Assembly: GCA_018335585.1 (NCBI GenBank)
Contig: JAGXRZ010000046.1
Location: forward strand, 11,832-75,831
Reading direction: 5' to 3'
From: Selenomonadales bacterium
Lineage (GTDB): Bacteria > Bacillota > UBA994
DNA length: 64,000 bases
Made by a program: the position numbers and the translations under genes. Positions 9,641 through 55,649 of the stretch are shown here, piece by piece. Numbering within the stretch: position 1 is the stretch's first letter; every line of letters begins with the position of its first letter. A model generated the notes under the pieces. That model saw only the letters and a program-made list of their open reading frames with translations. It was not told the origin of the DNA and ran no database searches.

Positions 9641-9644
9641 TGAA

Positions 9645-9719: not shown

Positions 9720-9750
9720 CATTTATCACTAAGACAGTATATACGTTTGC

Positions 9751-17204: not shown

Positions 17205-17579
17205 GTGAAGTCACAGGGAGGGTCTGCCATTAAGTCATGCGCTAAAGGCTATACGCTAGTTGAGCTGTTAATCGTAGTCAGCATAATCGCCGTCATTTCG
17301 GCCCTCGTGGTGCTGCGTATACTGCCCGCGGCTGCGGGTACCGGCGACGTGGGCGCCGGCCTGATGGAGCGAGCGGCGTGGGAAGCGGCCGCATGTAGAT
17401 TTAACCAGAACATTGTGCAGAATGCAACCGAGTACTTTGCCATTGTGTACGGGCATTACCCCGCGACACCGGCTGACTTGTTTCCGCGCTTTCTCGACCG
17501 CATCCCACGCTGCCCCGCCACCGGCGCGGAGTACCATTATGACGCGCATCACCTCGTAGTATGCCCTTATCACCCGTAA
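17205..17579 (+). CDS. Prepilin-type N-terminal cleavage/methylation domain protein (pseudopilin)
   Basis: KGYTLVELLIVVSIIAVISALVVL is a class-III signal peptide. The 3' 80 nt of the gene are duplicated at 30400-30480. Confidence 0.5.
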   Translation: MKSQGGSAIKSCAKGYTLVELLIVVSIIAVISALVVLRILPAAAGTGDVGAGLMERAAWEAAACRFNQNIVQNATEYFAIVYGHYPATPADLFPRFLDRIPRCPATGAEYHYDAHHLVVCPYHP

Positions 17580-30689: not shown

Positions 30690-32225
30690 CTATTCCCGGA
30701 ACAATGCCCGTCGGCGCGCCTGTATTTCGTGCGCAAAGTCTCGCTGCAGGTTTACATGAGTGGCCAAGAACTCCTGCCACCCCTGATTCTCGTCCAGGGA
30801 CTCCTCTTGCGTGATTTGAGCCAGTATCGCAGCTTTTTCGGCAGTTGTTTGCCCGAACGCGTCAGCTAACTTGCGCGCTAGAGTCTCGATGCGCAGGTTC
30901 TTATCTTCCGCACTCCAAGCCACCCAGATGTCTTGCATCTTTACTTCGCGTCTAAAACCCTCGCGGAAGCGTTCCTTCCAGCTGCTATATGCGGGTGCCA
31001 CTGCGTAGGCATCCCAAAACTGCTCAAGACGGTCAACATAGGCTCTTCGTATCGCTAAGTAACGGCTGTGCTGGGCGGGTGTCCATGCATGGAAGGGGTG
31101 ATGAATGTAAGGGTCGTGCAGTGAGAGGAAGCCGCCTACACCGCCTCTGCTGTATGCCTGCAACCAACTTCTACCCGCTGTCCAATGGCCAAAGATTTTT
31201 AGGGCATCCGCTTCCAAAAGGTCTAGCCGTTCCTGCGTCAAAATCTCTCCAGGTAACAAGCTTGCGCCAACACCACCGGCAGGCAAGATATGCATGGTTA
31301 CGCCAATCCTGCGGACTTCAATATCGTGCCCTATGTAGAAGTAGTCGACGGTCACAAAGGAACTTGTGTTGCGTGGGCGAGGGATGGCCTGTAGTACACT
31401 GCGCGGTACATGCCCCTGCACTCGCCGCACCAAATCGGACGTCCACACATCAAGGCCACCCGCCAGACGGTCGAGCGCAGTGTCTTTAGCGAGATGCTTC
31501 GGATAGTAGACCATTACTTCAGCCCATTCGCCTTGCATGGCTAGAACCCGTACATTCTCTCCCGTGCCCAGCTCGCCAAGAGCTTCGCCCGCTCTGCTCG
31601 GAGTGCGGTAAAGCGGGGTATCTTCTAACAAGTAGGCGATGTCGCGACCGTCGTTACGTCCCCACACTGGCAGACGAAGGGGTTTGTCTAGTCCCTCAGC
31701 CTGTGTAACTAGGGCTTGTGGAGAGGGCCAACTAGTAGAGAGCCAAACGAAATTATCGTTCTGCAGGCGTGAGCCGTCTACGGCGCGCAGTTCAGCCGGC
31801 AAGACCACGGTGACGAGAAAATTCGGCAAGCTACTCCCAGCGACATGATGCAATGACAGTGTTTTACCTTCAATGCGGTAGTAGAAATACTTCTGCTTTG
31901 GGGTTGCCACAGAAGGATACGCTACCACTGCCGATCCTCCGCTGAACAACAAAATTTCACAGCTGTTGTTTGGGTCTAACTCTTTGTTGAAAGTAAAGGT
32001 GATGGCGATGTCTTCGCTTGGCTGGAGCAAGTTGCGATGGAGGACTTCGACTCCCTCTGGTACTTCCACTATACCGTACCCCGAAATCTCTAACCTTGTG
32101 ACGGCGAGCCCCTTTTGGGAGGGCGCCTGTCGGCACCCTCCCGCAACGAGCGCTGCTACTGCGACGATTGTTACGATGAAAAGAACACCAAATCTCTTAG
32201 TTAAGGCCATTCTATTCGCCCCCAA
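30690..32225 (-). CDS. Lipoprotein with an SH3b-like domain, function unknown
   Basis: Lipobox-like VAGGC. TPLYRTPSRAGEALGELGTGENVRVLAMQGEWAEV resembles SH3b. The last ~30 codons lie inside the duplicated segment. Confidence 0.4.
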   Translation of the reverse strand: MGANRMALTKRFGVLFIVTIVAVAALVAGGCRQAPSQKGLAVTRLEISGYGIVEVPEGVEVLHRNLLQPSEDIAITFTFNKELDPNNSCEILLFSGGSAVVAYPSVATPKQKYFYYRIEGKTLSLHHVAGSSLPNFLVTVVLPAELRAVDGSRLQNDNFVWLSTSWPSPQALVTQAEGLDKPLRLPVWGRNDGRDIAYLLEDTPLYRTPSRAGEALGELGTGENVRVLAMQGEWAEVMVYYPKHLAKDTALDRLAGGLDVWTSDLVRRVQGHVPRSVLQAIPRPRNTSSFVTVDYFYIGHDIEVRRIGVTMHILPAGGVGASLLPGEILTQERLDLLEADALKIFGHWTAGRSWLQAYSRGGVGGFLSLHDPYIHHPFHAWTPAQHSRYLAIRRAYVDRLEQFWDAYAVAPAYSSWKERFREGFRREVKMQDIWVAWSAEDKNLRIETLARKLADAFGQTTAEKAAILAQITQEESLDENQGWQEFLATHVNLQRDFAHEIQARRRALFRE

Positions 32226-32377: not shown

Positions 32378-32890
32378 CTAAGGGGTCCCGCCATATAGGG
32401 TAGTCATCTGCTGTTTGAACCACTCCACCGCTTCCTTAAAGATGATATTCATCTCTCTATTGCTGGTGTTGAGACCAGCATGCATGCCGTAGTCGGTTGG
32501 CACCCAACCAGTGCTGACCTTAAATCCGTAGACAACTAGGCGTGCGCCGCTACTTGCCGTGCCCAATGCTATCGCAAACACTTCTGGGGGCTCTCCTAGC
32601 TCCTTTTTCGCTTTATCTAGGATCTCTTGCTGTAATCTGCCTACTTCCTCGTCACTTATGCCGGACTGAGTATGGCGCAGCATCAAGGCAATGCGGCCTG
32701 ATCTGAGAGTGTATCTGTCGCCGCCTCCCGTCACTGTCACAAGGGAAGAAGTTCCTTCCCAAGCTCGGACCAAGTCATTGATCTTTGCGGAAACTGAACT
32801 GTCGATCCCACCTCTCATGGCGCCGACACCTAGACGATTAACTGCGATGAAGGAAATCAGTAGCACTGCCAAAATGGCCCCTAGTCCCAA
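32378..32890 (-). CDS. Hypothetical membrane-anchored protein (170 aa)
   Basis: One N-terminal TM helix. No recognisable motif. Confidence 0.3.
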   Translation of the reverse strand: MGLGAILAVLLISFIAVNRLGVGAMRGGIDSSVSAKINDLVRAWEGTSSLVTVTGGGDRYTLRSGRIALMLRHTQSGISDEEVGRLQQEILDKAKKELGEPPEVFAIALGTASSGARLVVYGFKVSTGWVPTDYGMHAGLNTSNREMNIIFKEAVEWFKQQMTTLYGGTP

Positions 32891-34292: not shown

Positions 34293-34499
34293 GAGGCCAC
34301 CTCCAAAATGCCGTTAATTCATTCTACCCAGATTATAGCTCTGTTGGCAACACTATCACGTGCCAATGATAGTGTCGCGTGACACTAAAAGGCCTCTCCA
34401 TCCTGCCTATCATCTCAGGCATCCCCATAATCCGAGGGAATTGGCCTCATCTCAGTTGCTTTGGATTTTGCGGTGACGTATACTGAGTGTATCAACTAA

Positions 34500-34700
34500 A
34501 TACGCTGTGGGGTGCCCCTAGCTGTAGGGGTTAAAAGGGAATCAGGTGAGAATCCTGAGCGGTCCCGCCACTGTAACGGGTAGTGCCTATACTTAACCAC
34601 TGTTCGCGCGCGAATGGGAAGGAACTAGGCGCGTCACTCCCGTAGTCAGGAAACCTGCCCCAGAGCCAAGACTCCGTCCTTCGGTCGAAAGGACTAGGTC
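34500..34700 (+). ncRNA. Cobalamin (B12) riboswitch
   Basis: AAAGGGAATCAGGTGAGAATCCTGAGCGGTCCCGCCACTGTAACGG matches the conserved cobalamin-riboswitch core. It lies 5' of btuF. Confidence 0.7.
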
Positions 34701-34853: not shown

Positions 34854-35753
34854 ATGAAACGCATTGCTGTATTGTCGCTCGTACTCGTTCTCGCTGTGGC
34901 CTTATCCGGTTGCGCCGTACTTAACGTACTGCGGCCGAGCATTGTCGTAACGGATGACCTAGACCGCGAAGTACGCCTAGAGCGCGCGGCGCAGCGCATT
35001 GTCTCACTTGCCCCGAGTAACACGGAAATGCTCTTTGCCTTAGGCCTAGCAGAAGAAACCGTCGGTGTGTCCGAGCTCTGCGACTACCCACCGCAAGCTG
35101 CCACGAAGGAACGCGTCGGCTCATTTGCCACCCCTTCCATCGAAAAAATAGTTAGCCTCAAACCCGACCTCGTCTTAGCCGCCAGCCTACACAAAACTGT
35201 CGGCGAGCAATTAGTTGAGCTAGGGATTCCGGTAATTGTCCTGCATCCCGAAAGCATTCAGGGAGTGCTAGATAACGCCGACCTCCTCGGGCGGGTCACC
35301 GGTCAGGCGCGCGGCGCGGCGGAGCTTAAGCGGCAAATCACGGCGGAGCTCAATGCCGTTGACGAGCGCGTCAAAACACTAACACAGGCACAGCGGCCGC
35401 TAGTGTACTACGAGGTATGGTCTAACCCCATCATGACGGCCGGGCCCAACACGTTTATCAATGAACTTATTACCCGCGCGGGCGGCGTGAACTTAGGGGC
35501 GACCGCAACGACTGCCTGGCCGACGCTCTCGCTGGAGGAGCTTTTGTCTAGGCAGCCACAGGTCATGTTCTACGGCCATGCCACCGAGACGGTAGAGCAA
35601 GTCAGGCAGCGCGCCGATTGGGGCAGCATCCCTGCCCTGCGTGACGGACGGGTGTACCTGGTAGACGAAAACCTTATCCTGCGGGCCGGGCCCCGCATCG
35701 GGCAAGCGCTGCGGCTTCTCTCCACCCAGTTACACCCCGACCTATGGCGGTGA
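34854..35753 (+). CDS. btuF: Cobalamin/siderophore-type periplasmic binding lipoprotein (BtuF-like)
   Basis: Lipobox LSGCAV. PBP family 8 fold; IVSLAPSNTEMLFALGL. Confidence 0.7.
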   Translation: MKRIAVLSLVLVLAVALSGCAVLNVLRPSIVVTDDLDREVRLERAAQRIVSLAPSNTEMLFALGLAEETVGVSELCDYPPQAATKERVGSFATPSIEKIVSLKPDLVLAASLHKTVGEQLVELGIPVIVLHPESIQGVLDNADLLGRVTGQARGAAELKRQITAELNAVDERVKTLTQAQRPLVYYEVWSNPIMTAGPNTFINELITRAGGVNLGATATTAWPTLSLEELLSRQPQVMFYGHATETVEQVRQRADWGSIPALRDGRVYLVDENLILRAGPRIGQALRLLSTQLHPDLWR

Positions 35754-36781
35754 ACAAATTAGCCGCCATGCGCGCGTGGTCGGCTAACGCCCTCTTAGGC
35801 ATCGTCTTAGCCCTAAGCATAGTCCTAAGCCTCGTGGTGGGGGCGGTCGACATCGCTCCCACCCGCCTGTTGGCGGCTTTGCAGGAATTAGTGACTGCAC
35901 CTGCGAACACTTGGTCAGTAGATGCTGTGATAGCCTGGCGACTGAGATTGCCACGCGCTCTTCTAGCGGCGGCTGTAGGCGCCTCCTTGGCGACGGCAGG
36001 TGCCATTATGCAGGGCCTCTTGCACAACAGCTTGGCCGACTCCTTTGTGCTTGGTGTATCCTCGGGCGCAAGCCTTGGCGCGGCGATTGCCCTGTTACTT
36101 GGCCTAAACTTTGCCTTCTTTGGCCTCGGAGCTGTAACTCCGCTGGCGTTTGGGGGGGCAATGCTCGCGCTCTTAGCTGTGCTCATCATCTCGCGGCGAG
36201 TGGCCGGCCAATCGACTTTAGGTTTGCTCTTGGCAGGCATCGCGATGAATAGCGCGCTTTCTGCGGTGGTGTCGTTCCTAGTGCTGCTAAGCCGCGAGCG
36301 AATCAACCCCCTGCTCTTCTGGCTGATGGGAGGGTTCGCCGGACGCGGCTGGAGTCACCTCGTCCTGATGCTCCCCTACTTACTTGTCGGCTTGGCAATC
36401 GCCTACGCCTACCACCGCCACCTCACCGCCATCAGTCTCGGTGATGCGACTGCGCACCATTTAGGGGTAGATGTAAGCCGTGTGCGCCTCTTGCTTTTGG
36501 GGACGGCAGCGTTACTTACGGCGGCAGCCGTATCAGTAAGCGGCATGATTGGCTTTGTAGGCTTGATGACACCGCATTTCGCGCGCATGCTTGTCGGGCA
36601 TCACTACCGTCGCCTTTTACCCACTGCGGCCTTATGCGGGGCAATTTTCCTGACTTGCGCCGATCTCTTGGCACGCGTTGCTATGCGCCCGCAGGAACTC
36701 CCGGTCGGGATTATAACTGCTTTGTGCGGCGGGCCGTTTTTCCTCTGGCTCTTGTCGCGCCAACGGCGGGAGGTGGCCTAA
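35744..36781 (+). CDS. btuC: FecCD-family ABC permease (BtuC-like)
   Basis: 345 aa, 9-10 TM helices, FecCD signature region. Confidence 0.75.
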   Translation: MAVNKLAAMRAWSANALLGIVLALSIVLSLVVGAVDIAPTRLLAALQELVTAPANTWSVDAVIAWRLRLPRALLAAAVGASLATAGAIMQGLLHNSLADSFVLGVSSGASLGAAIALLLGLNFAFFGLGAVTPLAFGGAMLALLAVLIISRRVAGQSTLGLLLAGIAMNSALSAVVSFLVLLSRERINPLLFWLMGGFAGRGWSHLVLMLPYLLVGLAIAYAYHRHLTAISLGDATAHHLGVDVSRVRLLLLGTAALLTAAAVSVSGMIGFVGLMTPHFARMLVGHHYRRLLPTAALCGAIFLTCADLLARVAMRPQELPVGIITALCGGPFFLWLLSRQRREVA

Positions 36782-37566
36782 TGCCTGCCATTAGTGTCGA
36801 GAAGGTTTCCTATCGTTTTGGGCAGCCGGTACTCCGTGAAGTCTCGGCGAGTTTTAGTCAAGGCACTTTTACGGGGATTCTGGGCGCTAACGGTGTGGGC
36901 AAGTCAACCCTAGTCAAGCTTATCAGCCGGTGGCTGCCCCTGCAGGAAGGGTCAATCCGCATCTACGACCGCCCACTCCAAGCGTTCACACAGCGTGAAT
37001 TGGCCCGCCATATCGCTGTCGTGGCGCAAGAACAGGCGGAGCTTACGGAACTTACGGTGCGGGAAATGGTGGAACTAGGCCGCATCCCACACCAAGGGCT
37101 ACTAGACTCCCCTTCTCAGGCTGACCACAACGCGGTGGAATCCGCACTAGCACAGACAGGGCTACAGGCACTGGCCACGCGGCGCTTCGGCACGCTGAGC
37201 GGCGGAGAGCGACAACGCGTAAGGGTTGCTATGGCCCTAGCGCAAGCGGCCGACATTTTAATCCTCGATGAGCCTACCACACACCTTGACATCAGGTACC
37301 AACTAGAACTCCTGACACTGCTCGCCGAACTCGTCGCCAAGGGCTACACGGTAATTGCGGTGCTACACGACATTAACTTAGCGGCACTTTTTTGCGACCA
37401 CCTGCTGCTTCTCGCTGACGGTCGAGTGCTTAGCGCCGGAACCCCGGCTGAGGTTATTACGCGTGAGGCCATCTTAGAGGCATACCAGTGCGATGTCACT
37501 GTGCTCCTACACCCTACGTCCGAGGCACCACAGATTGCGCTGCGGCGAAGTTACCAGGATGCTTAG
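36781..37566 (+). CDS. btuD: ABC ATP-binding protein (BtuD/FepC-like)
   Basis: GANGVGKST; LSGGERQRV; ILILDEPTTHLD. Start at Met 36781 (MPAISVEKVSY). Confidence 0.75.
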   Translation: MPAISVEKVSYRFGQPVLREVSASFSQGTFTGILGANGVGKSTLVKLISRWLPLQEGSIRIYDRPLQAFTQRELARHIAVVAQEQAELTELTVREMVELGRIPHQGLLDSPSQADHNAVESALAQTGLQALATRRFGTLSGGERQRVRVAMALAQAADILILDEPTTHLDIRYQLELLTLLAELVAKGYTVIAVLHDINLAALFCDHLLLLADGRVLSAGTPAEVITREAILEAYQCDVTVLLHPTSEAPQIALRRSYQDA

Positions 37567-40089: not shown

Positions 40090-42195
40090 TTACCTTAGGA
40101 CTCTGATTCCAACTACATACAAGACCACCAGCACCCCAAGCATCACCCCGGCTACCACCAGTGACCCCAACGTGACGTTCTGTGGGTTCCAGACTACCGG
40201 TTGATGTTCGCCGGTTTCGTTTTCGCTAGCCGCCTCATTGCGCATGCGTCGTGTTGTTTGCACCGCCGCATGCCCTACGTGAGTGAAGCTCTCCTCAAGC
40301 CCCTGCTCGAGCCCGCGCGCTTGCTCTATTACTAGGTTTGTCGCGCGGCCCGCCACCTCATAGCCTTCGTCGAGCATGTCGTCTAACTTCTTGACGCGGC
40401 GGAGAACACTATGGGACACACTGCCGCTCCTGTCGTAGAGGTCGCAGATGCCGCCCTCCACACGCGTAACATAGCTACAGCAAAGCCTAAGGAAACCTTG
40501 ATACACAGGGCGATAGAACACCGCCTCGACAGACAGCCACCAAGGCACAGCGCCCTCGCCAAACCGATAGTGGCGCGCCGCTAGGAAAATTAGTACCCCA
40601 AGGGCTACAGGAATAGCCACCGCAACATACGAGCTCGTAGTCCACAGCTTTACGCCAGATAGCTGCTGCATCATTACGCCAAAGTCGACTACGGTGCTCG
40701 CCGCACTCCTGGCCATTAGGCCAATGAAACGCTCCGGGAACAAACCTATCGCCACGATACTAGCCGCAGTAAGGCCGAGCACCGCCGGGATAGCTACGCC
40801 TTCCTTGGTTCCCTGCGTTATTTGCCCTCGGTTCGCGCCTAGGAACACTCCGTAGTAGAGCTTAACGAAGTACGCGGCCGTCAAAGCTGAGCCCAGTATA
40901 AACAGCCATACAGCCCAAGTCAGGAGCCCTTCGCCGTGGTACGAAGCAGCCTTCTCGATGCCGTACTGAATAAGTTTCTTGCTGCCAAACCCGCTAAAAC
41001 CGGGGACTCCAAGGACGGCTAGGGAGGCAATCAAAGTCGTAACAGCCGTAAAGGGCAATACCTTTGCCATGCCCCCAAGTTTGCCTAGGTCGAGTGACTG
41101 GGCGCGCAGGTACACCGACCCCATCATCATAAATAGCCCCGCCTTAAACACAGCATGATTAAAGGCGTGAAACACGGCGGCGGTGTAGGGTAGGCCACCC
41201 TTGGCGCCTAAGTATGCGGCACAGCCGACGGCGAGCATCACATAGCCCATCTGACTGATACTGGAATAGGCCAAGAGGCGCTTGACGTTCCTCTGCAACA
41301 AAGCCATAATCGCGCCGCAAAGAATCGTGAGCAGGGCTACCCAGATAAGTACGAAGCCAATCTGCTGTGGGATGGCGGCGGTTGCCTTCGCCGGAACCGG
41401 CAATGACAATGTAACGGTAAGAACGCTCAGGATGCCGTAGAAGCCGGTCTTGCCCATCACGCCCGAAAGCAACGCCGTGCCGGGGGCAGGCGCCACAGGG
41501 TAGGCGTGCGGTATCCATACGTGCAGAGGAACCAACCCTGCCTTGACCCCAAACCCAATGAGAAACACTAGCGCTACCACATACGGACTGATTGTTCCAC
41601 CCTGCAGTATGTCAAGCACCGGCACAATGTCTGCCGTACCTGTCGTCCAAACCAAGAGCAGAATGCCAAGCAGTAACACCAGCCCTCCGGCCACACCCAT
41701 GTAGAGATAGCTATCGCCTGCGCGCATAGCTTCGTCGTCTTCGTCGTGAATGACAAGCGGATAAGCGGCGAAAGTCATGATTTCAAAGAACAGGAACAAC
41801 GTAAAGTAGTCTCCGGCCAGAAACACACCCAAGCAACCGCTGAGGCTCACCAAGAGGAAGCTCGAAAAGCGCGTCTGCGAGTGACTGCTCTGCATATAGC
41901 TCACGGCATACACCGTGATTAACGCCCATAGCCCTGCTGACAGTAGGGCAAAAAGTGTACCTAGGTCTGTCGGGCGAAAGCTAAGCCCGTAATCGACAAG
42001 GCGGAAGAAGACGAGCTCTAAGCGGTGCGGGGGATTTAGGACATAGACTGCTCCGGCAGCAGCCACTGCCGCCAAAGCAGAGGCAATCGTTATCGCGTCG
42101 CGCAGTCGCTGATTTCGGCGGCAAAGAAAGACCAGAACTGCACCAAGGAGGGGCAGCAGTATGGGCGCGAGGAGCAAGAGGTCTAGCGAACGCAC
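40090..42195 (-). CDS. mrpA: MrpA/NuoL-like proton-conducting antiporter subunit with an atypical C-terminal extension
   Basis: 701 aa. N-terminal ~480 aa are a NuoL/MrpA/MrpD-type membrane core. The C-terminal ~200 aa are a soluble region plus a final TM helix. Confidence 0.65.
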   Translation of the reverse strand: MRSLDLLLLAPILLPLLGAVLVFLCRRNQRLRDAITIASALAAVAAAGAVYVLNPPHRLELVFFRLVDYGLSFRPTDLGTLFALLSAGLWALITVYAVSYMQSSHSQTRFSSFLLVSLSGCLGVFLAGDYFTLFLFFEIMTFAAYPLVIHDEDDEAMRAGDSYLYMGVAGGLVLLLGILLLVWTTGTADIVPVLDILQGGTISPYVVALVFLIGFGVKAGLVPLHVWIPHAYPVAPAPGTALLSGVMGKTGFYGILSVLTVTLSLPVPAKATAAIPQQIGFVLIWVALLTILCGAIMALLQRNVKRLLAYSSISQMGYVMLAVGCAAYLGAKGGLPYTAAVFHAFNHAVFKAGLFMMMGSVYLRAQSLDLGKLGGMAKVLPFTAVTTLIASLAVLGVPGFSGFGSKKLIQYGIEKAASYHGEGLLTWAVWLFILGSALTAAYFVKLYYGVFLGANRGQITQGTKEGVAIPAVLGLTAASIVAIGLFPERFIGLMARSAASTVVDFGVMMQQLSGVKLWTTSSYVAVAIPVALGVLIFLAARHYRFGEGAVPWWLSVEAVFYRPVYQGFLRLCCSYVTRVEGGICDLYDRSGSVSHSVLRRVKKLDDMLDEGYEVAGRATNLVIEQARGLEQGLEESFTHVGHAAVQTTRRMRNEAASENETGEHQPVVWNPQNVTLGSLVVAGVMLGVLVVLYVVGIRVLR

Positions 42196-42208
42196 ATCTC
42201 TGTCCTCC

Positions 42209-43690
42209 CTATTTAGCTAAGAAAAGGGCGTCTGCCGCTCTCTCGGCGAGTTCTAGGGCGATGTTATAGGGCAGTAGGTCGATGACGAGAATAACGAGGC
42301 CGAGGACGACCATAGGCACGAGCATAGCCCAAGGCACTTCTGGCCGCTTAGCTCGCGCCTGTTCTGCGTGCGCTAATCCTTCACCAAAGAAGGCATTTTG
42401 AATAAGTGGAAAATAGTAAATGAAGTTCATTAGTGAGCTAAGCAAGAGCAGCATGACAAACGCAATGCTGCCTGCATCAAGCGCGCCGAGTGCTAACTCC
42501 CACTTAGAAACAAACCCGACTAGCGGGGGCACACCGACCATCGAGAGAGCGGCTACCGTGAAGACCGACATGGTGACGAGCATACTTCTTCCCATGCCTA
42601 CCCACTCTGATACCCTGCGCTTGCCAGTGCGATAGATTACAGACCCTGCCGCTAAGAACAGGCTCGACTTCATAAAGGCATGGGCAAAGATATGAAATAT
42701 CGCTCCAATTAAAGCCCTTTCCTGCAGCAACCCTATACCTAGGAGGATATATCCCATCTGCCCGACGCTTGAGTACGCAAGCCGGCGCTTGATTTCATCT
42801 TGGGTGATAGCCACAGCCGACCCAAGGAAAACCGTTATAGCCGCCAACCAGACCAGTAGATCGTTCCACCCCGTGCGTTGCACCATGTCTAGACCAAAAA
42901 TCTGGTACACGACGCGGATAAGCCCAAACGCACCGGTCTTAAGCATCAAGCCCGAAAGCAAGGCGCTAGCAGGACTAGGTGCTACCGGATGCGCTTCCGG
43001 CAGCCACACATGCAAGGGCACCATACCCGCCTTAATGCCAAAACCGACGAGAAAGCCAAGGAAGGCCAAGGTAGTGAGGCCGGTTACCTCAAGCGGCAGG
43101 CCGCCGGAAGTAAAGGCAACTGTGCCTGCACCCTGAAAGATGGCCATAATCGCAAACAGCAAGGCCAGTCCGCCGATAATAGTGAGAATAAGATACCTGT
43201 AGCCCGCGCGCATTGCTTCCGCGGTCTCTTCGTGGATTACCAGCACATAGGCCGAAAGCGACATCACTTCAAAGAACAAGAAGAACGTGAACAGGTCGCC
43301 GCTTAGGACAACGCCCATAGCGCCCGCTAATGTCAGCACGGAGAAAGGGTAGTACCTGTTTTTGGCATGCTCCTTGACCATATACGCGGTAGAGTAAATC
43401 GTGACTGCCAACCAGACAAAGGAAACTACCGCCGCCACCAGAAACGCTAAATAGTCCAAGCGAAACGAAATGCCAAGCGGAGGCAGTAGCTCCGGAAACT
43501 CGGCAATTAACGTTGTATCGGCCATAATTACATGATAGTGCTGTGCCACGAGCAGAAAAGAAGCTAGGGCCGCCAATACAGAAAGGCCGTTACGCAGCTG
43601 CCAAGAGCGGCGTTCCACGGCGTAGATAACTATAGCCAGGAAAAGCGGCACGAGTATAGGCAAAGTTAACGACCATGAGGTAGGTTGCAT
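42209..43690 (-). CDS. mrpD: MrpD/NuoN-like antiporter subunit
   Basis: 493 aa; proton-pumping membrane-subunit family. Confidence 0.7.
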   Translation of the reverse strand: MQPTSWSLTLPILVPLFLAIVIYAVERRSWQLRNGLSVLAALASFLLVAQHYHVIMADTTLIAEFPELLPPLGISFRLDYLAFLVAAVVSFVWLAVTIYSTAYMVKEHAKNRYYPFSVLTLAGAMGVVLSGDLFTFFLFFEVMSLSAYVLVIHEETAEAMRAGYRYLILTIIGGLALLFAIMAIFQGAGTVAFTSGGLPLEVTGLTTLAFLGFLVGFGIKAGMVPLHVWLPEAHPVAPSPASALLSGLMLKTGAFGLIRVVYQIFGLDMVQRTGWNDLLVWLAAITVFLGSAVAITQDEIKRRLAYSSVGQMGYILLGIGLLQERALIGAIFHIFAHAFMKSSLFLAAGSVIYRTGKRRVSEWVGMGRSMLVTMSVFTVAALSMVGVPPLVGFVSKWELALGALDAGSIAFVMLLLLSSLMNFIYYFPLIQNAFFGEGLAHAEQARAKRPEVPWAMLVPMVVLGLVILVIDLLPYNIALELAERAADALFLAK

Positions 43691-43705
43691 AGATTGGCCT
43701 CCAAT

Positions 43706-45172
43706 TTATCTCACGAAGAGATGAGCTGTCTGGCGTACCAGAGGAACCATCAGTGAAGGGAACAAACCAAAGAAAAAGACCATGCCCACCAGCACGGCGA
43801 TAGGTGCCAACACACTCATAGCCGGTTCTTTAACTTGCACCTCGCTATCGCTACCAAAGAAGGCGGAGATGATTATGGGAAAGTAGTAGGCTGCGTTAAG
43901 CAGGCTGCTGATGAGGATAAACACGGCGAAGATCATCATATCCGCGTCAAGTGCCCCAAGCGCCAAGTACAGCTTTGAAATGAACCCAGCCGTACCCGGG
44001 ATGCCCACCATGGACATTGCGCCGACAGCGAAAGCCGCGAAAGTAAGCGGCATCCTGCGTCCTAGGCCATTAAACTGCGACAGCTTCTTGATTCCGGTCT
44101 GGTGGATTATTACCCCGGCGGTTAAGAACAAAAGAGACTTCATTACGGCGTGGTTAAGGATGTGTAGCACACCGCCTTCAATAGCGCGCTGACTGAACAA
44201 GCCAAACCCTAGGAAGATATATCCCACTTGCGCTACCGTGGAAAAGGCCAGTAAACGCTTGACGTTATCCTGTACCATGGCAAAAACCGAGCCTACCATC
44301 AGCGCGCCTGTCGAAAGCGCCAAGAAAAGGTGTCGTATCGGCAACAGCGCAAAGATTTCAAGCCCTAACGCTAAGTAGGCAATCCGCATAAGCGCAATGA
44401 TGTAAACCTTTACGACTAGACCGCTGAGCAAAGCGCTAGAGGCGGTAGGGGCGTTAGAATGCGCGTCGGGCAGCCACACATGCATAGGGAAGAGGGCGGC
44501 TTTCACGCCGAATCCTACTACCATTAGGCCTATGGCAGTCAGTAGATTTAAGGGGTACTGTGTTGCTGTTATGGTCAGCGTAGCGCGAATGTAGTCCATA
44601 TTGAGATGTCCGGTGATCATAAAGATTAAGGCTATAGAAAAGAGCAGTCCTCCGGAACCTAGGGCGCTTAGGACTAGGTAGCGGAAGCTCGCTTCCACGC
44701 TCTCTTTAGTGCCCTTGATGGCGATAATGGCGATAGCCGCGAGCGAGCTAATCTCGATGAAAACAAAGAGGTTAAACAAGTCCCCAGCCATTACCATGCC
44801 CTGCATCGCCGCAGTAAGGAGAAGGATGAGAGTGAAATATGCACTGTTGTTGCGCACCTCGCGCGGGCCACAGACGGCAAACCAAGAAATAATGAGAGAT
44901 ACGGTGGCAATAACGAGGGAGGAAAAGGCCGCGAAAACGTCCACCCACACCACAATTCCATATGGCGCCGGCCAGCCGCCCACGGGATACCTGAGTGTGC
45001 CCTGCGCTAAGACCTGCATCGTCATACGTAGGGCTAGGGCAAAGGCCAACAGGCCTGCGCCCAAGAAGACCGCATTTACGGCAGACTCGCGCTTACCAAA
45101 GAGCGGAGTAACAAAGGCGGCAAGGAGCAAGACAGCGACAATAAGTACAGGCGCATGTGTCACACTAGGCAT
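43706..45172 (-). CDS. mrpD: MrpD/NuoM-like antiporter subunit
   Basis: 488 aa; same family as the neighbouring MrpD. Confidence 0.7.
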   Translation of the reverse strand: MPSVTHAPVLIVAVLLLAAFVTPLFGKRESAVNAVFLGAGLLAFALALRMTMQVLAQGTLRYPVGGWPAPYGIVVWVDVFAAFSSLVIATVSLIISWFAVCGPREVRNNSAYFTLILLLTAAMQGMVMAGDLFNLFVFIEISSLAAIAIIAIKGTKESVEASFRYLVLSALGSGGLLFSIALIFMITGHLNMDYIRATLTITATQYPLNLLTAIGLMVVGFGVKAALFPMHVWLPDAHSNAPTASSALLSGLVVKVYIIALMRIAYLALGLEIFALLPIRHLFLALSTGALMVGSVFAMVQDNVKRLLAFSTVAQVGYIFLGFGLFSQRAIEGGVLHILNHAVMKSLLFLTAGVIIHQTGIKKLSQFNGLGRRMPLTFAAFAVGAMSMVGIPGTAGFISKLYLALGALDADMMIFAVFILISSLLNAAYYFPIIISAFFGSDSEVQVKEPAMSVLAPIAVLVGMVFFFGLFPSLMVPLVRQTAHLFVR

Positions 45173-45536
45173 GTCGTTTACTCCTTAGGGCGATAATCTT
45201 GTCTGCGTCAATTGTGCCATACTGCTTATGCAGGAGCACAACCAGAGCTAAAGCGAAAGCAGTGAAACTTACGGAAATAACTATACCTGTAAGAATAAGT
45301 GCTGAAGGTACGGGGTTGACGTACAGCGTGACGCCTTCTTTGAGAATAGGCGCCTGCCCGCCGCGAATATAGCCAATAGCGACAAAGAACAAGAACAGCG
45401 ACGTGTCCATGATGTTCATCCCCATGATTTTTTTAAGCAGGTTGTTGTGAGTAAGCATAGTATGAAAGCCAATAATAAAGAGCATTACAGACGTTAAGTA
45501 GTAGATGTTCATCCATAGTCGCTCAATGATGGCCAT
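45165..45536 (-). CDS. mrpC: MrpC/NuoK-like subunit
   Basis: 123 aa, three TM helices; NuoK-like. Confidence 0.65.
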   Translation of the reverse strand: MAIIERLWMNIYYLTSVMLFIIGFHTMLTHNNLLKKIMGMNIMDTSLFLFFVAIGYIRGGQAPILKEGVTLYVNPVPSALILTGIVISVSFTAFALALVVLLHKQYGTIDADKIIALRSKRHA

Positions 45537-45963
45537 CCGGTCCTGCGCCCCCTTCCAGCAGTTCTTGGAACAGCGTAAACACCGTGCCGGCGACCTTTGC
45601 TCCGATGCCTAGTGTCACCAGCAAGATCATGCCGCTGCTCCAGAGGCGACCCGGTTCCCCGGTCGGAAATACTCCCTGGTTGGTAAGGAAGTGTCGTCCT
45701 ACCAAGATACCCACAAGGCCCGCGCCTACGTAGATTAGTGCTCCGCCTACCTCAAACAGGAGCGATGTCTCGTGCTTTAGGCGGTGCTTCTTGGCCGTAA
45801 ACCGATAGACTAGGCTATAGAAGATAAAGCTCGCGCCGATGATGGTGCCGCCGGAAAAGCCCCCACCTGGCGAAAGGTGGCCGTGAAAAAGAATGTACGC
45901 GCCAAAGAGCTGCGTGGCTGGGATAAGCACTCTCCCAAGCATCTCTAGAATCATGTCATGCAT
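45523..45963 (-). CDS. mrpB: MrpB-like subunit
   Basis: 146 aa; ...GHLSPGGGFSGGTIIGASFIFY is the MnhB motif. Confidence 0.6.
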   Translation of the reverse strand: MHDMILEMLGRVLIPATQLFGAYILFHGHLSPGGGFSGGTIIGASFIFYSLVYRFTAKKHRLKHETSLLFEVGGALIYVGAGLVGILVGRHFLTNQGVFPTGEPGRLWSSGMILLVTLGIGAKVAGTVFTLFQELLEGGAGPDGHH

Positions 45964-46237
45964 GTTCGTACCCTCCGTAGAGCGCGGCCCCTACAGCTAC
46001 GACCGCCACAAACAAGACGGTGGCCTCGCCTAAGGTGTCGTAAGCGCGGTAGTCGATGATAATCGCGGCGATAGTGTTAAGTGCACCGGTATCGCGCACA
46101 CTATCGGATAGGTACTTCTGCATAATGCCTTGGTGAGCGGGAGCGCTCGCGTCGCCATACAGCGGCATCTCCGCAACCATCAGCGTCAGCAGCACGCCGA
46201 TGCCAAGCAAAATTATTACGGTTATGGTCTTTCTCAT
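45956..46237 (-). CDS. MrpB-related small subunit (MbhE-like)
   Basis: 93 aa, two TM helices. Confidence 0.5.
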   Translation of the reverse strand: MRKTITVIILLGIGVLLTLMVAEMPLYGDASAPAHQGIMQKYLSDSVRDTGALNTIAAIIIDYRAYDTLGEATVLFVAVVAVGAALYGGYEHA

Positions 46238-46602
46238 TCTTCGTGCCTCCCGGTGCGGCTGATGGCGGCAAGAAACAAGAGCGAGGTTGCCCCGGCACCG
46301 ATGGCGGCTTCAGTAATGGCGACGTCAGGCGAATGCAGCTGTTGCCAGATAATGGACATGACCATGCTGTAGGCACCGAAAATAATCGTCGCGCTGAGCA
46401 GGTCCTTAGTGCGCGCCACGACTATAGCACAGACCACCAGAAATGCCAACAAGAGGACATTAATTGCCGCTAGCATGCTTGTCCTCCCTTCGCGTGCGGT
46501 AAACGGCTCGCGCCATATAATGCGCCGCTGCCGGGGTTGTAACCCACAAAAAGACAATAAGCAGGATGACCTTAAGCACAAGGTATACGTTGCCGCCCTC
46601 AA
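46234..46602 (-). CDS. MrpB-domain (DUF4040-like) small subunit; probable true start near 46480
   Basis: MLAAINVLLLAFLVVCAIVVARTKDLLSATIIFGAYSMVMSIIW. The N-terminal ~40 codons of the listed ORF overlap mrpG. Confidence 0.45.
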   Translation of the reverse strand: MRAATYTLCLRSSCLLSFCGLQPRQRRIIWREPFTAREGRTSMLAAINVLLLAFLVVCAIVVARTKDLLSATIIFGAYSMVMSIIWQQLHSPDVAITEAAIGAGATSLLFLAAISRTGRHEE

Positions 46603-46768
46603 AGAATGTTAGGCCGACCAATACCAGTCCGGCACCCAAGGTATCACATTTTGTCGTAGCATGCATGCGCGAGAGCGCGTCGGGGAAGCGCAGCAGACCG
46701 ACCGTGCCGGCCGTGAAAAAGAACAAGCCCGCAAAGAGAAACGCTGTGCCAATAAGGGTTGCGATCAT
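46460..46768 (-). CDS. mrpG: MrpG/MnhG
   Basis: FTAGTVGLLRFPDALSRMHATTKCDTLGAGL. Confidence 0.65.
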   Translation of the reverse strand: MIATLIGTAFLFAGLFFFTAGTVGLLRFPDALSRMHATTKCDTLGAGLVLVGLTFFEGGNVYLVLKVILLIVFLWVTTPAAAHYMARAVYRTRREDKHASGN

Positions 46769-46781
46769 AGTTTCGTACCTC

Positions 46782-47051
46782 TCATACGATGGTGCCCCGT
46801 TCGATGTAGCGAGCCACTCCTATAGTTAAAAGGAAGCTTATTAGCGCGTAGACGATGGCGACGTCAAGGTAATACGGGACTTCATGAAAAATGTAGCCAA
46901 TGAGCATCAGCACGACTACCGTTTTTGTGCCGATAACGTTAATCGCCACAACTCTATCAGCGGGCGTCGGGCCCACAACTGCGCGATACAAGGACGCGAA
47001 AGTGAGCAACATGAGCCCTAAACACGTAACCAAAAGTACGGTTCGTTCCAT
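46782..47051 (-). CDS. mrpF: MrpF/MnhF
   Basis: 89 aa; ...RVVAINVIGTKTVVVLMLIGYIF. Confidence 0.65.
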   Translation of the reverse strand: MERTVLLVTCLGLMLLTFASLYRAVVGPTPADRVVAINVIGTKTVVVLMLIGYIFHEVPYYLDVAIVYALISFLLTIGVARYIERGTIV

Positions 47052-47545
47052 TAATGTCGCCTCTCTATCTCTGCCAGCAAATTCTCGATGTGCCAGCCGG
47101 CAAGTCCGGCCGCGGCGCCGTCCGTCAGGGCATGTACGACGAAGTTTCCTTGCGCCGGCGCTTCGACCGAGATTGTGCCCGGCGTCAGGGTAATGCTGTT
47201 CGCCAGGAATACGCGCATCATCGGCTCCTTGAGCTTGCTCTCGTGCGTGACAAACTGCGGCTTTATGTCTAACTTGCGCGCGAAAGCGAGTTCGGCAACT
47301 TGCACGGAGGCCTTGATGACGTCAACGATTAAGTACCTAACATAAGTCAGCCAAGCGGAAAGGTTTGTACGGCTGATGTGCAGGTCATTGGTGAAACTAA
47401 GCAGCAGGTCGCGGTTAACAAAGGTTACTAACCCCGCCACCAGCCAACCGGTAATTACAGACTGAACATCAAAACTTTGCGCAAACAGCATCCAAAGCAG
47501 GAACAAAGCCAGAGTCCAGCCGAATAGTCGAGTATACCGCGACAC
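47051..47545 (-). CDS. mrpE: MrpE/MnhE
   Basis: 164 aa; MnhE family. Confidence 0.65.
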   Translation of the reverse strand: MSRYTRLFGWTLALFLLWMLFAQSFDVQSVITGWLVAGLVTFVNRDLLLSFTNDLHISRTNLSAWLTYVRYLIVDVIKASVQVAELAFARKLDIKPQFVTHESKLKEPMMRVFLANSITLTPGTISVEAPAQGNFVVHALTDGAAAGLAGWHIENLLAEIERRH

Positions 47546-47625: not shown

Positions 47626-48465
47626 CTACCTGTTAGGTGCCTTTTCTAATGCATCGATGACTGCTGACACAAAGCCTTCACTCGAGCCGGTCGCGCCCGA
47701 GACGGCGTCAACTTCTGGGTCTTGCTCGCGGATTACGGCCTTAGCCAGCTCCACGAAGGCGGGATTAGCATACTCCGGCGTGTCTTGATGGGCCAAAACC
47801 CTGACACTTTCCACTCGGCCGGACTTGACGGTGACTAAAACTCTAACCGGCCCAAACAAGCCGCTTCCTTCACCCTGATACTCGCCGTCAGGAATAGTCG
47901 CGAGGTCGCGCACAAATCTGTCGACCGGAACAGGCGGCGCTGCGCCTAGGACGTGCTGTCCAAACATGAGCAGTGCATTCCTCACCCCGGCAGTTACGCC
48001 ACGTACCGACAATGTCGCGCCGGAGATGGCTTGGACATCGCCTCCCACCGCCAGTGGGTCGCGCGCCGTCTTGCCGGTGAACTGACGCAGAAACGCCGAG
48101 GCCGCTACCCGGTCTCCGATTCCCGGCGTCTCGCGGTGCCCGGTAATGCGCACGCCCTGCGCCGCTCCGGACATGTCGACTGCGACTAACAGGTTGATAG
48201 GACCTGCGTAGCCGCTACCGGCGCTCTGCATTATTGCTCCCACGGGCTTTCCGTCTTTAGTGGCTAGAAAGAAGGTGACACCGTCACGCGTTGTTTCCTC
48301 GAATCTGTCGGCGACAGGCAAAAGATCGCCGAGTGCCCGTTGTAGCTCAGCTTGTTTGCGCTCGGCTATGACGACGCTAGTGACAGAGTGAGTGGCCGCT
48401 AAGGCTGCTCCCGCAATAGCGCAGATTAGAGCGAGTGTGACGCTTAGCTTAAAAACTTCCCTCAT
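47626..48465 (-). CDS. Membrane-anchored protein with two FMN-binding domains (RnfG/NqrC/PplA-like)
   Basis: Domain 1: GYAGPINLLVAVDMSGAAQGVRITGHRETPGIGDRV...ISGATLSVRGVTAGVRNAL. Domain 2: ...VKSGRVESVRVLAHQDTPEYANP...DAVSGATGSSEGFVSAV. The Ser/Thr in the S/TGAT motifs are the covalent FMN-attachment sites. Confidence 0.7.
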   Translation of the reverse strand: MREVFKLSVTLALICAIAGAALAATHSVTSVVIAERKQAELQRALGDLLPVADRFEETTRDGVTFFLATKDGKPVGAIMQSAGSGYAGPINLLVAVDMSGAAQGVRITGHRETPGIGDRVAASAFLRQFTGKTARDPLAVGGDVQAISGATLSVRGVTAGVRNALLMFGQHVLGAAPPVPVDRFVRDLATIPDGEYQGEGSGLFGPVRVLVTVKSGRVESVRVLAHQDTPEYANPAFVELAKAVIREQDPEVDAVSGATGSSEGFVSAVIDALEKAPNR

Positions 48466-49823: not shown

Positions 49824-50501
49824 TCATAGGTTACTAAAGATCAAATAAAGCCCTACGCCGACAAACAGCAGGCCGGCTACGTACGCGCCATAGTCCCAGT
49901 AGCGACTTAGACCGCGCCAAGCGCGGAGGGCTCCCGCTGCGCTTCCCACAAGCAGCAGCGGCACGCCCTGCCCTATCCCAAACGCAAACAGCAGTAGCCC
50001 ACCCGTATAGATGCGCCCGGAGGCCGCAGCAACACCGACGATGACGCCAAGTACTGGCCCCGCGCAGGGTGACGCTGCAAACCCAAACACCAATCCCACT
50101 ATGTAGGCCCCGAGCAACCCATCCGTGCGCAGAGGAAGCTTACTAATGGCGGAAACAGGTAGCTGAATGAGCTGCATCAGACTAAGTCCCATCAAAACCA
50201 GCACTGCGCCTAGCAAGAGCGGCAGAAAGTCGGAGGTGATGCCAATCATGCCGCCTAGGAGGGCTGCTACCACCCCGAGCCCCGTAAAGGCGCTGGCCAG
50301 CCCGAGGATTAGACAGAGCACAAGGAGCAGGCTACGGCGCGTCTTTATGCCCTTAAAGACGCCTACATAGCCCAAAACCAACGGCATCATCGCAATGATG
50401 CAGGGAGAGAGGCTAGTTAATACCCCGACTGAAAATGCAGCCAGCAAGGCCCAACCAAGCTGCCCCGCCAGTATGTTCTGTAGCGTTTCCAGTGCAATCA
50501 T
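49824..50501 (-). CDS. ccdA: Cytochrome c-type biogenesis / thiol-disulfide transmembrane electron carrier CcdA
   Basis: ...LSPCIIAMMPLVLGYVG... and ...AASPCAGPVLGVIVGVAA; the two conserved Cys of DsbD/CcdA. Confidence 0.8.
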   Translation of the reverse strand: MIALETLQNILAGQLGWALLAAFSVGVLTSLSPCIIAMMPLVLGYVGVFKGIKTRRSLLLVLCLILGLASAFTGLGVVAALLGGMIGITSDFLPLLLGAVLVLMGLSLMQLIQLPVSAISKLPLRTDGLLGAYIVGLVFGFAASPCAGPVLGVIVGVAAASGRIYTGGLLLFAFGIGQGVPLLLVGSAAGALRAWRGLSRYWDYGAYVAGLLFVGVGLYLIFSNL

Positions 50502-50929
50502 GGGTCAAGCCCCTGCAGCAGAAACTGCCGCAGTGTTTCCTTAGACATACCCCCGACGCGTTGCTGTTCACGCCCGGTTGCGGAAATCATCACGAAGTGA
50601 GGGATAGTCCGCACGTTGAAGCGCAGAACGAGCTCCCCCGTCTCCCTTTCCGTCGTATCCGCGACAACAAAGGCGACCTGTGTGCCAAACTCGGCCTTAA
50701 GTTCCCGCACCGCGGGATACATTATTACACAGGCGCGTCAAGTGTCCGCGGTAATCATAACGAACACCGGCCTGCTCTCCGCTATCGCGCGCTGAAACGC
50801 CGTAAAGGGCTGGCGGGTCTTTAGGTCGTCGCCGCCACCCGGCCGAGCCAGAAACCAGGCCACGGCTGCGACGAGCAAAACAAGTACCAGAGATACGCTA
50901 CGTTTCACTCTTATCGCCCTCCCAGACAT
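50498..50929 (-). CDS. Membrane-anchored thioredoxin-like protein with an in-frame TGA at the CxxC position (candidate selenoprotein, UxxC)
   Basis: ORFs 50738..50929 and 50498..50722 share one frame, separated only by TGA at 50738-50740. The joined sequence ...VFVMITADT-[TGA]-RACVIMYPAVRELKAEFG... places the stop exactly where the first Cys of the thioredoxin WCxxC motif sits. A likely GTG start at about 50907 follows GGGAGG. Confidence 0.45.
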
Positions 50930-54161: not shown

Positions 54162-55649
54162 TTGAGCACTAAAAAAGACATCGCGCATATGGCACTTCTG
54201 CGCCGACAGAGCCGCACACCACTCTTTGACGCGCTGCGCAACTACGTGCGCGAGGGCACGCTCTCTTTCCACGTCCCCGGCCACAAACACGGCAAGGGGC
54301 TACCGGAGTTTACGCGCTTTGTCGGCAAGAATGTCATGAACATTGACCTCACCATCATGCCTGACCTCGACAGCATCTACAAGCCGCATGGGCCGATAAA
54401 AGCAGCACAAGACCTCGCCGCCGAGGCCTTCGGTGCAGACTACGCCCATTTTCTCAGCAACGGCACGACCGCAGGCATTCACTGCATGTTGATGTCTACC
54501 TTGCGCCCGGGCGACAAGTTTATCGTACCGCGCAATGCCCATAAATCCGTGATTTCAGCGATGATTTTAACCGGGGCTGAGCCTGTATACATCCAGCCCT
54601 ACGTGGACAACTACCTAGGCGTAGCCATGGCCATTACCGCCGACGAAGTACGCCAAGCACTGCGCCAACAACCCGACGCCAAGGCCATATTTGTTATTAA
54701 CACGACCTTCTACGGCATGGCGCCGGAGCTAGAGCGCATTGTGGAGATTGCGGAGGACTACGAGATACCGGTGCTAGTTGACGAGGCTCACGGAGCCCAC
54801 CTTAAGTTCCATCCCAGTCTGCCACTGTCAGCGATGGAAGCTAAGGCGGACATGGCTGCCCTAAGCACGCATAAGCTCCTTGGCTCCATGACCCAGAGCT
54901 CCCTGCTACTCACGCGGGGCGACCTGATAGACGCCCAGTATGCGAAGACGACCCTGAATTTGACGCAGACTACCAGCCCAAGCTACCCGCTATTGGCCTC
55001 GCTAGATATGGCGCGCAAACAGGTCTTCTTCCGCGGGCAAGAAATGCTTACACACGCCATTAACCTCGCGAACTGGGCGCGCTACGAAATCAACAATAAC
55101 ATCCCCGGCCTCTATGTGTACGGCAACGATATGGTCGGACAGCCGGGCTGCTATGAATATGACCCTACTAAACTGTGCATAAACGTGAGAGCCTTAGGCA
55201 TCTCCGGCTTTGAAATGGAGCGCATCCTGCGGCAAGGGTTCCACATTCAAGTAGACCTCTCCGACCTGTACAACGTCCTATGCGTAGTCTCGATTGCGGA
55301 TAGCAAAGAAGCCGTGCGCACCCTCGTGCATGCCCTGAGCGAGATTGCGCGCAAATACCAAGTTCAAGACGTGCGCGAGCAGCCCATTGAGCTGCCGCCG
55401 CTCCCGGCACTTGCCTATCTGCCGCGCGAAGCCTTCTATGCCGAGACTAAGCGCGTGCCTTTAGATCAGGCTAAGGGGAAAATCGTGGCCGAGATGCTTA
55501 TGGCTTACCCTCCCGGTATTCCGCTTATCTGTCCGGGAGAAATCCTAACCGAAGAGATTATCGACTACGTGCGCATGCTCGAAGAGGCAGACGCACAAAT
55601 ATACGGCACCGAAGACCCTAATGCGGAGTATATAAAGATTGTGAGGTGA
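54162..55649 (+). CDS. Orn/Lys/Arg decarboxylase-family PLP enzyme
   Basis: ...LSFHVPGHKHGKG...DLTIMPDLDSIYKPHGPI...STHKLLGSMTQSS is the OKR_DC_1 major domain. Confidence 0.75.
   Translation: MSTKKDIAHMALLRRQSRTPLFDALRNYVREGTLSFHVPGHKHGKGLPEFTRFVGKNVMNIDLTIMPDLDSIYKPHGPIKAAQDLAAEAFGADYAHFLSNGTTAGIHCMLMSTLRPGDKFIVPRNAHKSVISAMILTGAEPVYIQPYVDNYLGVAMAITADEVRQALRQQPDAKAIFVINTTFYGMAPELERIVEIAEDYEIPVLVDEAHGAHLKFHPSLPLSAMEAKADMAALSTHKLLGSMTQSSLLLTRGDLIDAQYAKTTLNLTQTTSPSYPLLASLDMARKQVFFRGQEMLTHAINLANWARYEINNNIPGLYVYGNDMVGQPGCYEYDPTKLCINVRALGISGFEMERILRQGFHIQVDLSDLYNVLCVVSIADSKEAVRTLVHALSEIARKYQVQDVREQPIELPPLPALAYLPREAFYAETKRVPLDQAKGKIVAEMLMAYPPGIPLICPGEILTEEIIDYVRMLEEADAQIYGTEDPNAEYIKIVR

Follow-up and report, generated by a model that had tools for sequence, protein, structure and literature searches.

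No kind of bacterial selenoprotein is predicted more often than thioredoxin-fold proteins with a UxxC motif. Among the extracytoplasmic thiol-disulfide oxidoreductases of Bacillota, those that depend on CcdA include two proteins of Bacillus subtilis, ResA for cytochrome c maturation and StoA for the spore cortex, and the Etrx lipoproteins of streptococci, and CcdA itself is a short form of the DsbD membrane domain, with six helices versus eight. We analyzed a 64,000-nucleotide stretch of a Selenomonadales bacterium (the window; assembly GCA_018335585.1, contig JAGXRZ010000046.1, positions 11,832 to 75,831), in which a thioredoxin frame interrupted by one in-frame TGA lies next to a ccdA gene. 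We judge, with a probability of roughly 85%, that positions 50908..50498 of the minus strand form one gene for a 136-residue membrane-anchored selenoprotein thioredoxin with the active site Sec57-Arg-Ala-Cys60, where Sec (U) is selenocysteine. The product would most likely be an extracytoplasmic disulfide reductase that is recharged by the overlapping ccdA gene product.

The Sec-containing thioredoxin (Trx; PF00085, UxxC) is an experimentally supported selenoprotein family, exemplified by WP_010956703.1, and the known Trx-fold selenoproteins further include the "thiol:disulfide interchange protein," DsbA/DsbG-like proteins, and UGC-type TlpA (PMC13188914). The predicted protein in the window resembles Sec-Trx in its classical fold, in having Sec in place of the N-terminal nucleophilic Cys of CxxC, in a bacterial Sec insertion sequence (bSECIS) candidate just downstream, and in the existence of Cys homologues. 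However, the known Sec-Trx is soluble and cytoplasmic, whereas the window protein has an N-terminal membrane anchor; in its family, moreover, no Trp precedes the active site (T/G-U-[RPA]-x-C), and the gene invariably comes together with that of CcdA, once fused to it. With ResA, StoA, and Etrx it would share the design of a membrane-tethered Trx-fold reductase on the outer face whose gene adjoins or is coupled to ccdA, but those proteins use Cys-x-x-Cys and are of the larger TlpA/redoxin type. The exported or membrane-bound Trx-fold selenoproteins likewise place Sec first in their redox motif and were found by the same comparative logic, but they belong to other subfamilies with other motifs.

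An in-frame UGA within one predicted gene

The minus-strand frame from 50929 to 50498 is open throughout save for a single TGA at 50740..50738, and the residues around that codon read ...RPVFVMITADT-TGA-RAC-VIMYPAVRELK.... This bears out an earlier note, made on this DNA from its letters alone, which had described two open reading frames (ORFs) in one frame parted only by the TGA at 50738-50740. The features of the locus, all on the minus strand and numbered by position in the window, are as follows.

50498..50908, minus: predicted selenoprotein gene, GTG start, 136 codons including Sec57, with its own terminator TGA at 50500..50498
50917..50923, minus: Shine-Dalgarno sequence GGGAGGG, 8 nucleotides upstream of the GTG, also found upstream in the orthologous loci L011, L012, and L013
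50846..50890, minus: N-terminal hydrophobic segment, residues 7-21, LVLVLLVAAVAWFLA, following Lys-Arg, read from the translation
50738..50740, minus: in-frame UGA, predicted Sec57, first position of the U-R-A-C redox motif
50729..50731, minus: TGT, Cys60, the predicted resolving Cys of U-x-x-C, invariant in all orthologues and aligned with the second Cys of WCGPC
50701..50720, minus: candidate bSECIS hairpin GU(A)UCCCGC-GGU-GCGGGAAC, with the core stem 50717..50712 paired to 50708..50703 and the apical loop GGU at 50711..50709
50600..50602, minus: CCT, Pro103, predicted cis-proline of the thioredoxin fold (RTIPHF), invariant and aligned with the R-x-IP loop of thioredoxins in the Protein Data Bank (PDB)
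49824..50501, minus: ccdA, six-transmembrane thiol-disulfide electron transporter, with the motifs SLSPC and AASPC in its translation

The earlier note had placed the ORF at 50498-50929. The frame holds, but the start at 50929 does not: the real start is almost certainly the GTG at 50908 and not the ATG at 50929, because a start at [AGT]TG-AAR-CG is conserved in every orthologue, matching GTG 50908, and because GGGAGGG lies 8 nucleotides upstream of it. The hydrophobic N-terminal segment of 15 residues, preceded by Lys-Arg, is kept in all family members. By the positive-inside rule, this segment would be a signal-anchor that puts the thioredoxin domain outside the membrane.

Pairs of same-frame ORFs split by a single TGA are not rare, since the window holds 29 of them with at least 45 codons on each side. 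Inspection of the others by eye, without individual searches, found no Cys redox motif around the TGA. What lifts this locus far beyond chance is the continuity of a single domain across the TGA together with the conservation of the TGA in relatives.

The thioredoxin fold extends across the UGA

When the two ORFs were joined with Cys at the stop, the protein matched Pfam Thioredoxin PF00085 with 44.1 bits (E = 2.3e-11, cutoff 23.5), and the match spanned both sides of the stop. For a phmmer search against PDB sequences we put X rather than Cys at the stop to keep the alignment unbiased. This search matched 38 thioredoxins, with T-X-R-A-C aligned on W-C-G-P-C and RTIP on the cis-proline loop. 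The X thus falls on the first Cys of WCGPC, in agreement with the claim that the stop occupies the nucleophilic Cys position of a thioredoxin CxxC motif. The fold straddles the TGA, with strand 1 and the active site upstream and the remainder downstream. An AlphaFold model of the Cys-containing orthologue described below, built from a 21-sequence alignment, had a predicted local distance difference test score (pLDDT) of 95.1, and its best PDB matches were thioredoxins (3gnj, template modeling score 0.84); it also superposed on the DsbD C-terminal domain (2fwf and 1vrs). We used the alignment-based model since prediction from the single sequence of this orthologue was unusably poor (pLDDT 57.5).

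The joined protein with Cys at the stop had no match at E ≤ 0.001 in a word-indexed protein search, was marginal for Pfam Thioredoxin_2 (27.8 bits versus a cutoff of 27), and scored far below the cutoff of the NCBIfam thioredoxin equivalogs (37.9 bits versus 96.8). The earlier note had called the product a ResA-like partner of CcdA, a label that proved too specific. The window protein had no match at E ≤ 0.01 to the NCBIfam models for ResA (NF002854) and StoA (NF041202), and the family member at locus L021 reached only 24.5 bits with the ResA model (cutoff 170) and 16.6 bits with the StoA model (cutoff 210). We therefore rejected "ResA-like" as a family assignment, the ResA, StoA, and TlpA models all being far below their cutoffs. 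None of the selenoprotein-specific models in NCBIfam 20.0 reached its cutoff; the best on the window protein was TsoB, with 17.6 bits versus 805, and the L021 member scored 24.7 bits versus 805 with TsoB and 15.2 versus 300 with trx7_PDZ_seleno. The TsoB C-terminal region gave weak sequence matches (E = 8e-4 to 3e-6), but the Sec residues of TsoB belong to a UxxxxU motif in another part of that protein. In the window protein, a minimal thioredoxin domain of the classical type is attached to a membrane anchor, and the Sec-thioredoxin family is not yet captured by any curated NCBIfam model.

The TGA is conserved among orthologues

At least 23 contigs, drawn from JGI, Logan, ENA, and NCBI assemblies, encode a CcdA protein identical to that of the window. 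The independent same-species contigs that were examined carried the TGA in 10 of 10 cases; they fall into two haplotypes, with four synonymous changes and one replacement between them. Three further species came out of a scan of species-representative genomes, at the loci L011, L012 (HKB212), and L013 (GPS119), with CcdA proteins 92-76% identical to that of the window and with TGA at the same codon in the context D-T-U-R-[AS]-C; in L012 there is an in-frame one-codon deletion downstream of the TGA. A metagenome scan returned three more loci, L014, L015 (U-R-T-C), and L016, again with TGA at this codon; one of its two patterns demanded a Cys codon at the Sec site and was blind to TGA forms.

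More distant relatives were sought with HMMER, using the C-terminal 79 residues against 1.84 billion cluster representatives. The best matches were ORFs of 66-76 amino acids that start just past the redox motif, mostly exactly at the Met of "MYPAV." Short ORFs that begin there are the signature of gene calls truncated by a stop, and the nucleotide sequences of L017, L018, L021, L024, L025, and L029 confirm it, each with a TGA in frame at the codon in question (S-D-T-U-[PA]-x-C) and with the same neighbors wherever the contig is long enough. The Met is not conserved, being Ser in L025 and Ala in L029. Altogether, the Sec-type sequences comprise eleven distinct proteins with 42-80% identity to the window protein. 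Four further thioredoxin-like ORFs of 70-87 amino acids (P0010, P0013, P0019, and P0025) also start just past the expected CxxC, and these may be additional Sec-thioredoxins shortened by gene callers.

One close relative has Cys at the site. The ORF of the orthologue P0004 (locus L020) runs without interruption through this codon, which is TGT there and gives G-C-R-S-C. The protein is 39% identical to the window protein, and its synteny is that of the Sec loci (NUDIX, aminotransferase, HD, Trx, and CcdA). The close relatives thus divide into 11 Sec forms versus 1 Cys form, and farther membrane-anchored CxxC relatives are P0016, P0020, P0021, and P0024. Comparison of the window, L011, L012, and L013 gave ratios of nonsynonymous to synonymous substitution (dN/dS) of 0.08-0.15 upstream and 0.17-0.28 downstream of the TGA, at saturated dS values of about 1-2. 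Because dN/dS is low on both sides of the TGA, both halves must be translated and under selection. The orthologue alignment yields eleven sequences that keep the TGA and are neither truncated nor decayed and one that has TGT in the same synteny. The alternative that the earlier note had allowed, a recent nonsense mutation, is refuted by this conservation and by the selection on both sides.

A candidate SECIS hairpin follows the UGA

The earlier note had pointed to a small hairpin, CCCGC-GGU-GCGGG, 21 nucleotides downstream of the UGA at 50704-50716 with G and U in its loop. The core is indeed at 50716..50704, 21 nucleotides past the UGA, but its extent was understated, since the full hairpin reaches from 50720 to 50701 and has eight pairs and one bulged A. 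The spacing from the UGA to the loop is 26 nucleotides, the stem has 6(+2) base pairs, the loop is the 3-nucleotide GGU, and the minimum free energy is -9.7 kcal/mol. The published criteria for bacterial SECIS elements, four in all, were taken from PMC13188914, and the hairpin at 50720..50701 passes all four.

Variation among the relatives suggests that the RNA itself is conserved. The element UAUCCCGCGGUGCGGGA is invariant in 9 of 10 aligned Sec-type sequences and in L029. The third bases of the Pro, Ala, and Val codons within the stem-loop are identical in 29 of 30 cases; elsewhere in the gene, the mean major-allele frequency at 8 invariant four-fold-degenerate codons is 0.48. In L021, the single exception, a change of CCC to CCU is matched by a change of CGG to CAG on the other strand, which turns a C-G pair into U-A, and in L025 the basal G-C pair has become A-U. 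Pairing holds in 95% of the cells of the stem alignment and drops to no more than 74% once the 3' partners are shifted. Directly behind the UGA, a stretch of 17 codons has a dS 3-4 times lower than that of the remaining downstream codons. The Cys orthologue has no hairpin (-1.8 kcal/mol) and reads YPVVE in place of YPAVR; the YPAVR residues therefore appear to be required by the RNA and not by the protein. Synonymous sites, compensation, and pairing together point to RNA-level selection on this putative bSECIS, so that the SECIS scan found conservation and covariation in addition to agreement with the published form.

The thioredoxin gene adjoins ccdA

As had been claimed, the neighboring gene is ccdA. 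The gene at 50501..49824 matches Pfam DsbD_TM with 83.3 bits versus a cutoff of 27.1 (E = 2e-23), its start overlaps the thioredoxin stop as ATGA, and ccdA adjoins the Sec-thioredoxin at every orthologous locus. In L025 (1-1414) the two are fused in frame as a single ORF with Trx N-terminal, and no additional helix separates Trx from the first helix of CcdA. With the Trx domain facing outward, as we propose, this arrangement fits only a CcdA N terminus on the outside, which is where the DsbD topology has it. The L025 protein is a natural single-chain Trx-CcdA and, like DsbD, combines a transmembrane conduit with what would be an outer Trx-like domain. It differs from DsbD in that the domain order is reversed, with Trx N-terminal to the membrane domain, and in that there is no alpha domain.

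At L028 (85-1356) lies a second, distant case, in which a CcdA gene comes after the gene for a membrane-anchored thioredoxin with W-U-T-A-C (TGA). The SECIS-like candidate there is different, GGAGCC-CGUGGUUAU-GGCUCU, with a stem that starts 17 nucleotides past the UGA. Because of this second case, the pairing of Sec-Trx with CcdA extends beyond one clade. A literature search on selenoproteins or selenocysteine together with CcdA found no relevant report, with the papers on selenocysteine and CcdA judged by title.

We propose the following route for expression and catalysis. The UGA at 50740..50738 would be read as Sec in translation, with the hairpin 21 nucleotides downstream (loop GGU) recruiting SelB-GTP-Sec-tRNA(Sec) to the ribosome when the UGA occupies the A site; at the second TGA, 79 codons on and without such a hairpin, termination would be normal. 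With the thioredoxin domain on the outer side of the membrane, the selenolate of Sec57 would attack the disulfide of a substrate, Cys60 would resolve the mixed selenenylsulfide to leave an internal Se-S bond, and that bond would be re-reduced by CcdA, which takes electrons from thioredoxin in the cytoplasm and passes them through the membrane. In this scheme we infer from the sequence the identity of the inserted residue as Sec, the outward topology, and the electron flow from CcdA.

The conserved neighbors of the pair are a YhaM-like HD/OB protein, a GT4 glycosyltransferase, an FMN_bind protein, and an Mrp antiporter. Pfam searches of the window genes found neither resB/resC nor other genes for cytochrome c or cytochrome c maturation near the locus, and a promoter and terminator scan gave background levels only. 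The multisubunit Mrp/Mnh-type cation:proton antiporter cluster is at 40090-47545 (minus strand), with a protein of two FMN_bind domains beside it (47626-48465). These genes are conserved downstream of Trx-CcdA-GT4 in L001, L021, and L029. The antiporter cluster and the FMN_bind protein would fit an alkaliphilic lifestyle.

A walk of 8 kb past the right end of the window found a GerAC gene, which suggests a spore former of the Bacillota type as the host. By analogy with StoA, a role in spore envelope assembly is one possibility. A more speculative idea, which we consider unlikely, is that the Sec-thioredoxin/CcdA pair, a "seleno-DsbD" in the one lineage where the two are fused, is not a housekeeping protein-disulfide reductase and would be a dedicated exported selenol catalyst, acting outside the cell on small or inorganic substrates (polysulfide, elemental sulfur, selenium, or metal species) or keeping an extracellular flavoprotein or electron-transfer system reduced. 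The setting would be uncultured spore formers of the Bacillota type, some of which live in serpentinite fluids that are hyperalkaline and strongly reducing; two orthologous metagenome-assembled genomes (MAGs) derive from serpentinite springs. If true, this idea would explain why the costly Sec form has been retained by nearly all of the clade (11 Sec versus 1 Cys).

Alternative explanations

Several observations weigh against reading the UGA as Sec. We found neither selA, selB, selD, nor tRNA-Sec in the 64-kb window, in the 8 kb past its right end, or in the fetched loci, a look-up that comprised Pfam on about 45 window genes, Rfam, and tRNA scans of 16 loci and left the rest of the genome uncovered. 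A second selenoprotein gene is not visible anywhere in the window, and Rfam at gathering thresholds gave no match to a SECIS family in it. The folding energy of the hairpin is like that of shuffled sequence (z of -0.1 to -1.1), a comparison that is uninformative for so short a hairpin. The hairpin is short and overlaps the conserved peptide YPAVR, so the nucleotide conservation is partly protein-driven. Finally, the Trx-CcdA fusion was seen on one 1.4-kb Logan contig only. Indirect evidence for Sec machinery comes from related MAGs: L012 and L013 are listed as "SRB2" of the GTDB Firmicutes_D class UBA994 (PMC9751293 supplement), and glycine reductase, termed a selenoprotein in that study, is reported for SRB2 of the same two sites, Hakuba and The Cedars (PMC9751293).

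The sequence data speak to recoding rather than to which residue is inserted, and no Sec machinery was located in the regions covered. Insertion of Cys through a SECIS/SelB-like route, or hairpin-stimulated near-cognate readthrough to Trp or Cys, would account for a translated UGA; tRNA-Sec-like tRNA(Cys) species, which the first of these would use, have been proposed from genome surveys. We nevertheless regard such recoding as very unlikely. A nucleophilic CxxC position followed by a SelB-type bSECIS hairpin is the standard signature of a Sec/Cys pair, Cys is available at no cost through TGT, as in L020, so a costly signal kept across the clade argues for a product other than Cys, and an enzyme with Trp as its catalytic residue would be inactive. 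The glycine reductase of the related lineage (PMC9751293) also speaks against it. Given the hairpin and the catalytic position, the inserted residue is by far most likely to be Sec.

Gene finders call both ORFs in many assemblies, and most members have an ATG 5 codons past the TGA, as would be expected if a membrane peptide of 56-63 amino acids ended at the TGA and a separate 74-amino-acid thioredoxin-related protein began at ATG 50722. But the thioredoxin fold spans the TGA, the redox motif is missing from the 74-amino-acid piece, other residues stand in for the internal Met in L025 and L029, the five codons between TGA and ATG, which include the invariant Cys60, are under selection, and the Cys orthologue is a single continuous ORF; two small genes are thus highly improbable. 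The TGA is one step from TGT or TGC and only fragments are annotated (the 74-amino-acid MBS3985741.1 and a 56-amino-acid ORF), which is what a nonsense mutation in a Cys-type thioredoxin partner of CcdA would also leave. A pseudogene of this kind is extremely improbable, since eleven distinct orthologues, the most distant at 42% identity, retain the TGA and show no further stops or frameshifts, with dN/dS of 0.08-0.28 on either side at saturated dS; the carriers are not one recent clone (dS > 1), and a covarying hairpin conserved at synonymous sites would be left unexplained. Neither a genome-wide reassignment of UGA, as in genetic codes 4 and 25, nor an error of sequencing or assembly has anything in its favor beyond the in-frame TGA itself. 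TGA ends 11 of 45 Pfam-supported window genes and is internal to none of them, it also ends the Sec-thioredoxin gene, and the identical TGA occurs in at least 10 independent assemblies (JGI, Logan, ENA, and NCBI), so the chance of either is negligible.

The Orn/Lys/Arg decarboxylase at 54162-55649 has a secondary Pfam match to SepSecS of 33.8 bits, which is generic similarity of the pyridoxal phosphate fold and not Sec machinery. A cluster of seven tRNA genes at 8783-9720 on the minus strand encodes tRNAs for Leu, Cys, Gly, Phe, Asp, Val, and Arg, with no tRNA-Sec among them.

Annotation and significance

GenBank annotates 50498-50722 as the 74-amino-acid "hypothetical protein KGZ66_09095" (MBS3985741.1) and the CcdA gene at 49824-50501 as "sulfite exporter TauE/SafE family protein." In IMG, CcdA is "cytochrome c-type biogenesis protein" and the C-terminal fragment "thioredoxin-related protein." Our reading corrects the fragment and the TauE/SafE label to one predicted selenoprotein gene and CcdA. 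What we describe is a previously unannotated family of predicted selenoproteins in which Sec forms are dominant and the putative SECIS is minimal and conserved; the principle itself is well established. A compact Sec/Cys pair with a minimal 20-nucleotide SECIS would be a useful test case for selenoprotein predictors. The family suggests that some uncultured Bacillota-type lineages keep a CcdA-fed selenoenzyme on the outer side of the membrane, and it raises the question of what selenium gives to a trans-membrane reductive pathway that sulfur does not.

Other features of the window

The window contains a DDE transposase gene at 21246-22853. Five stretches hold ORFs of 170-511 amino acids without a Pfam match at the thresholds used (13320-14000, 17401-18210, 23486-24442, 30690-32225, and 32378-32890). 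A likely integrated mobile element occupies 687-6845, beside a tRNA-Val gene (6769-6845), and has the following genes.

687-1574: helix-turn-helix/peptidase S24 repressor
1522-2682, minus: TnpB/Cas12f-like OrfB
3457-4731: C5 DNA methylase
4728-5498: EcoO109I-type restriction endonuclease
5499-6677: tyrosine integrase

A cobalamin riboswitch (109 bits) was found at 34493-34676 on the plus strand, directly upstream of a transporter of the periplasmic-binding-protein/FecCD/ATP-binding cassette ATPase kind at 34854-37566, which is presumably for corrinoid uptake.

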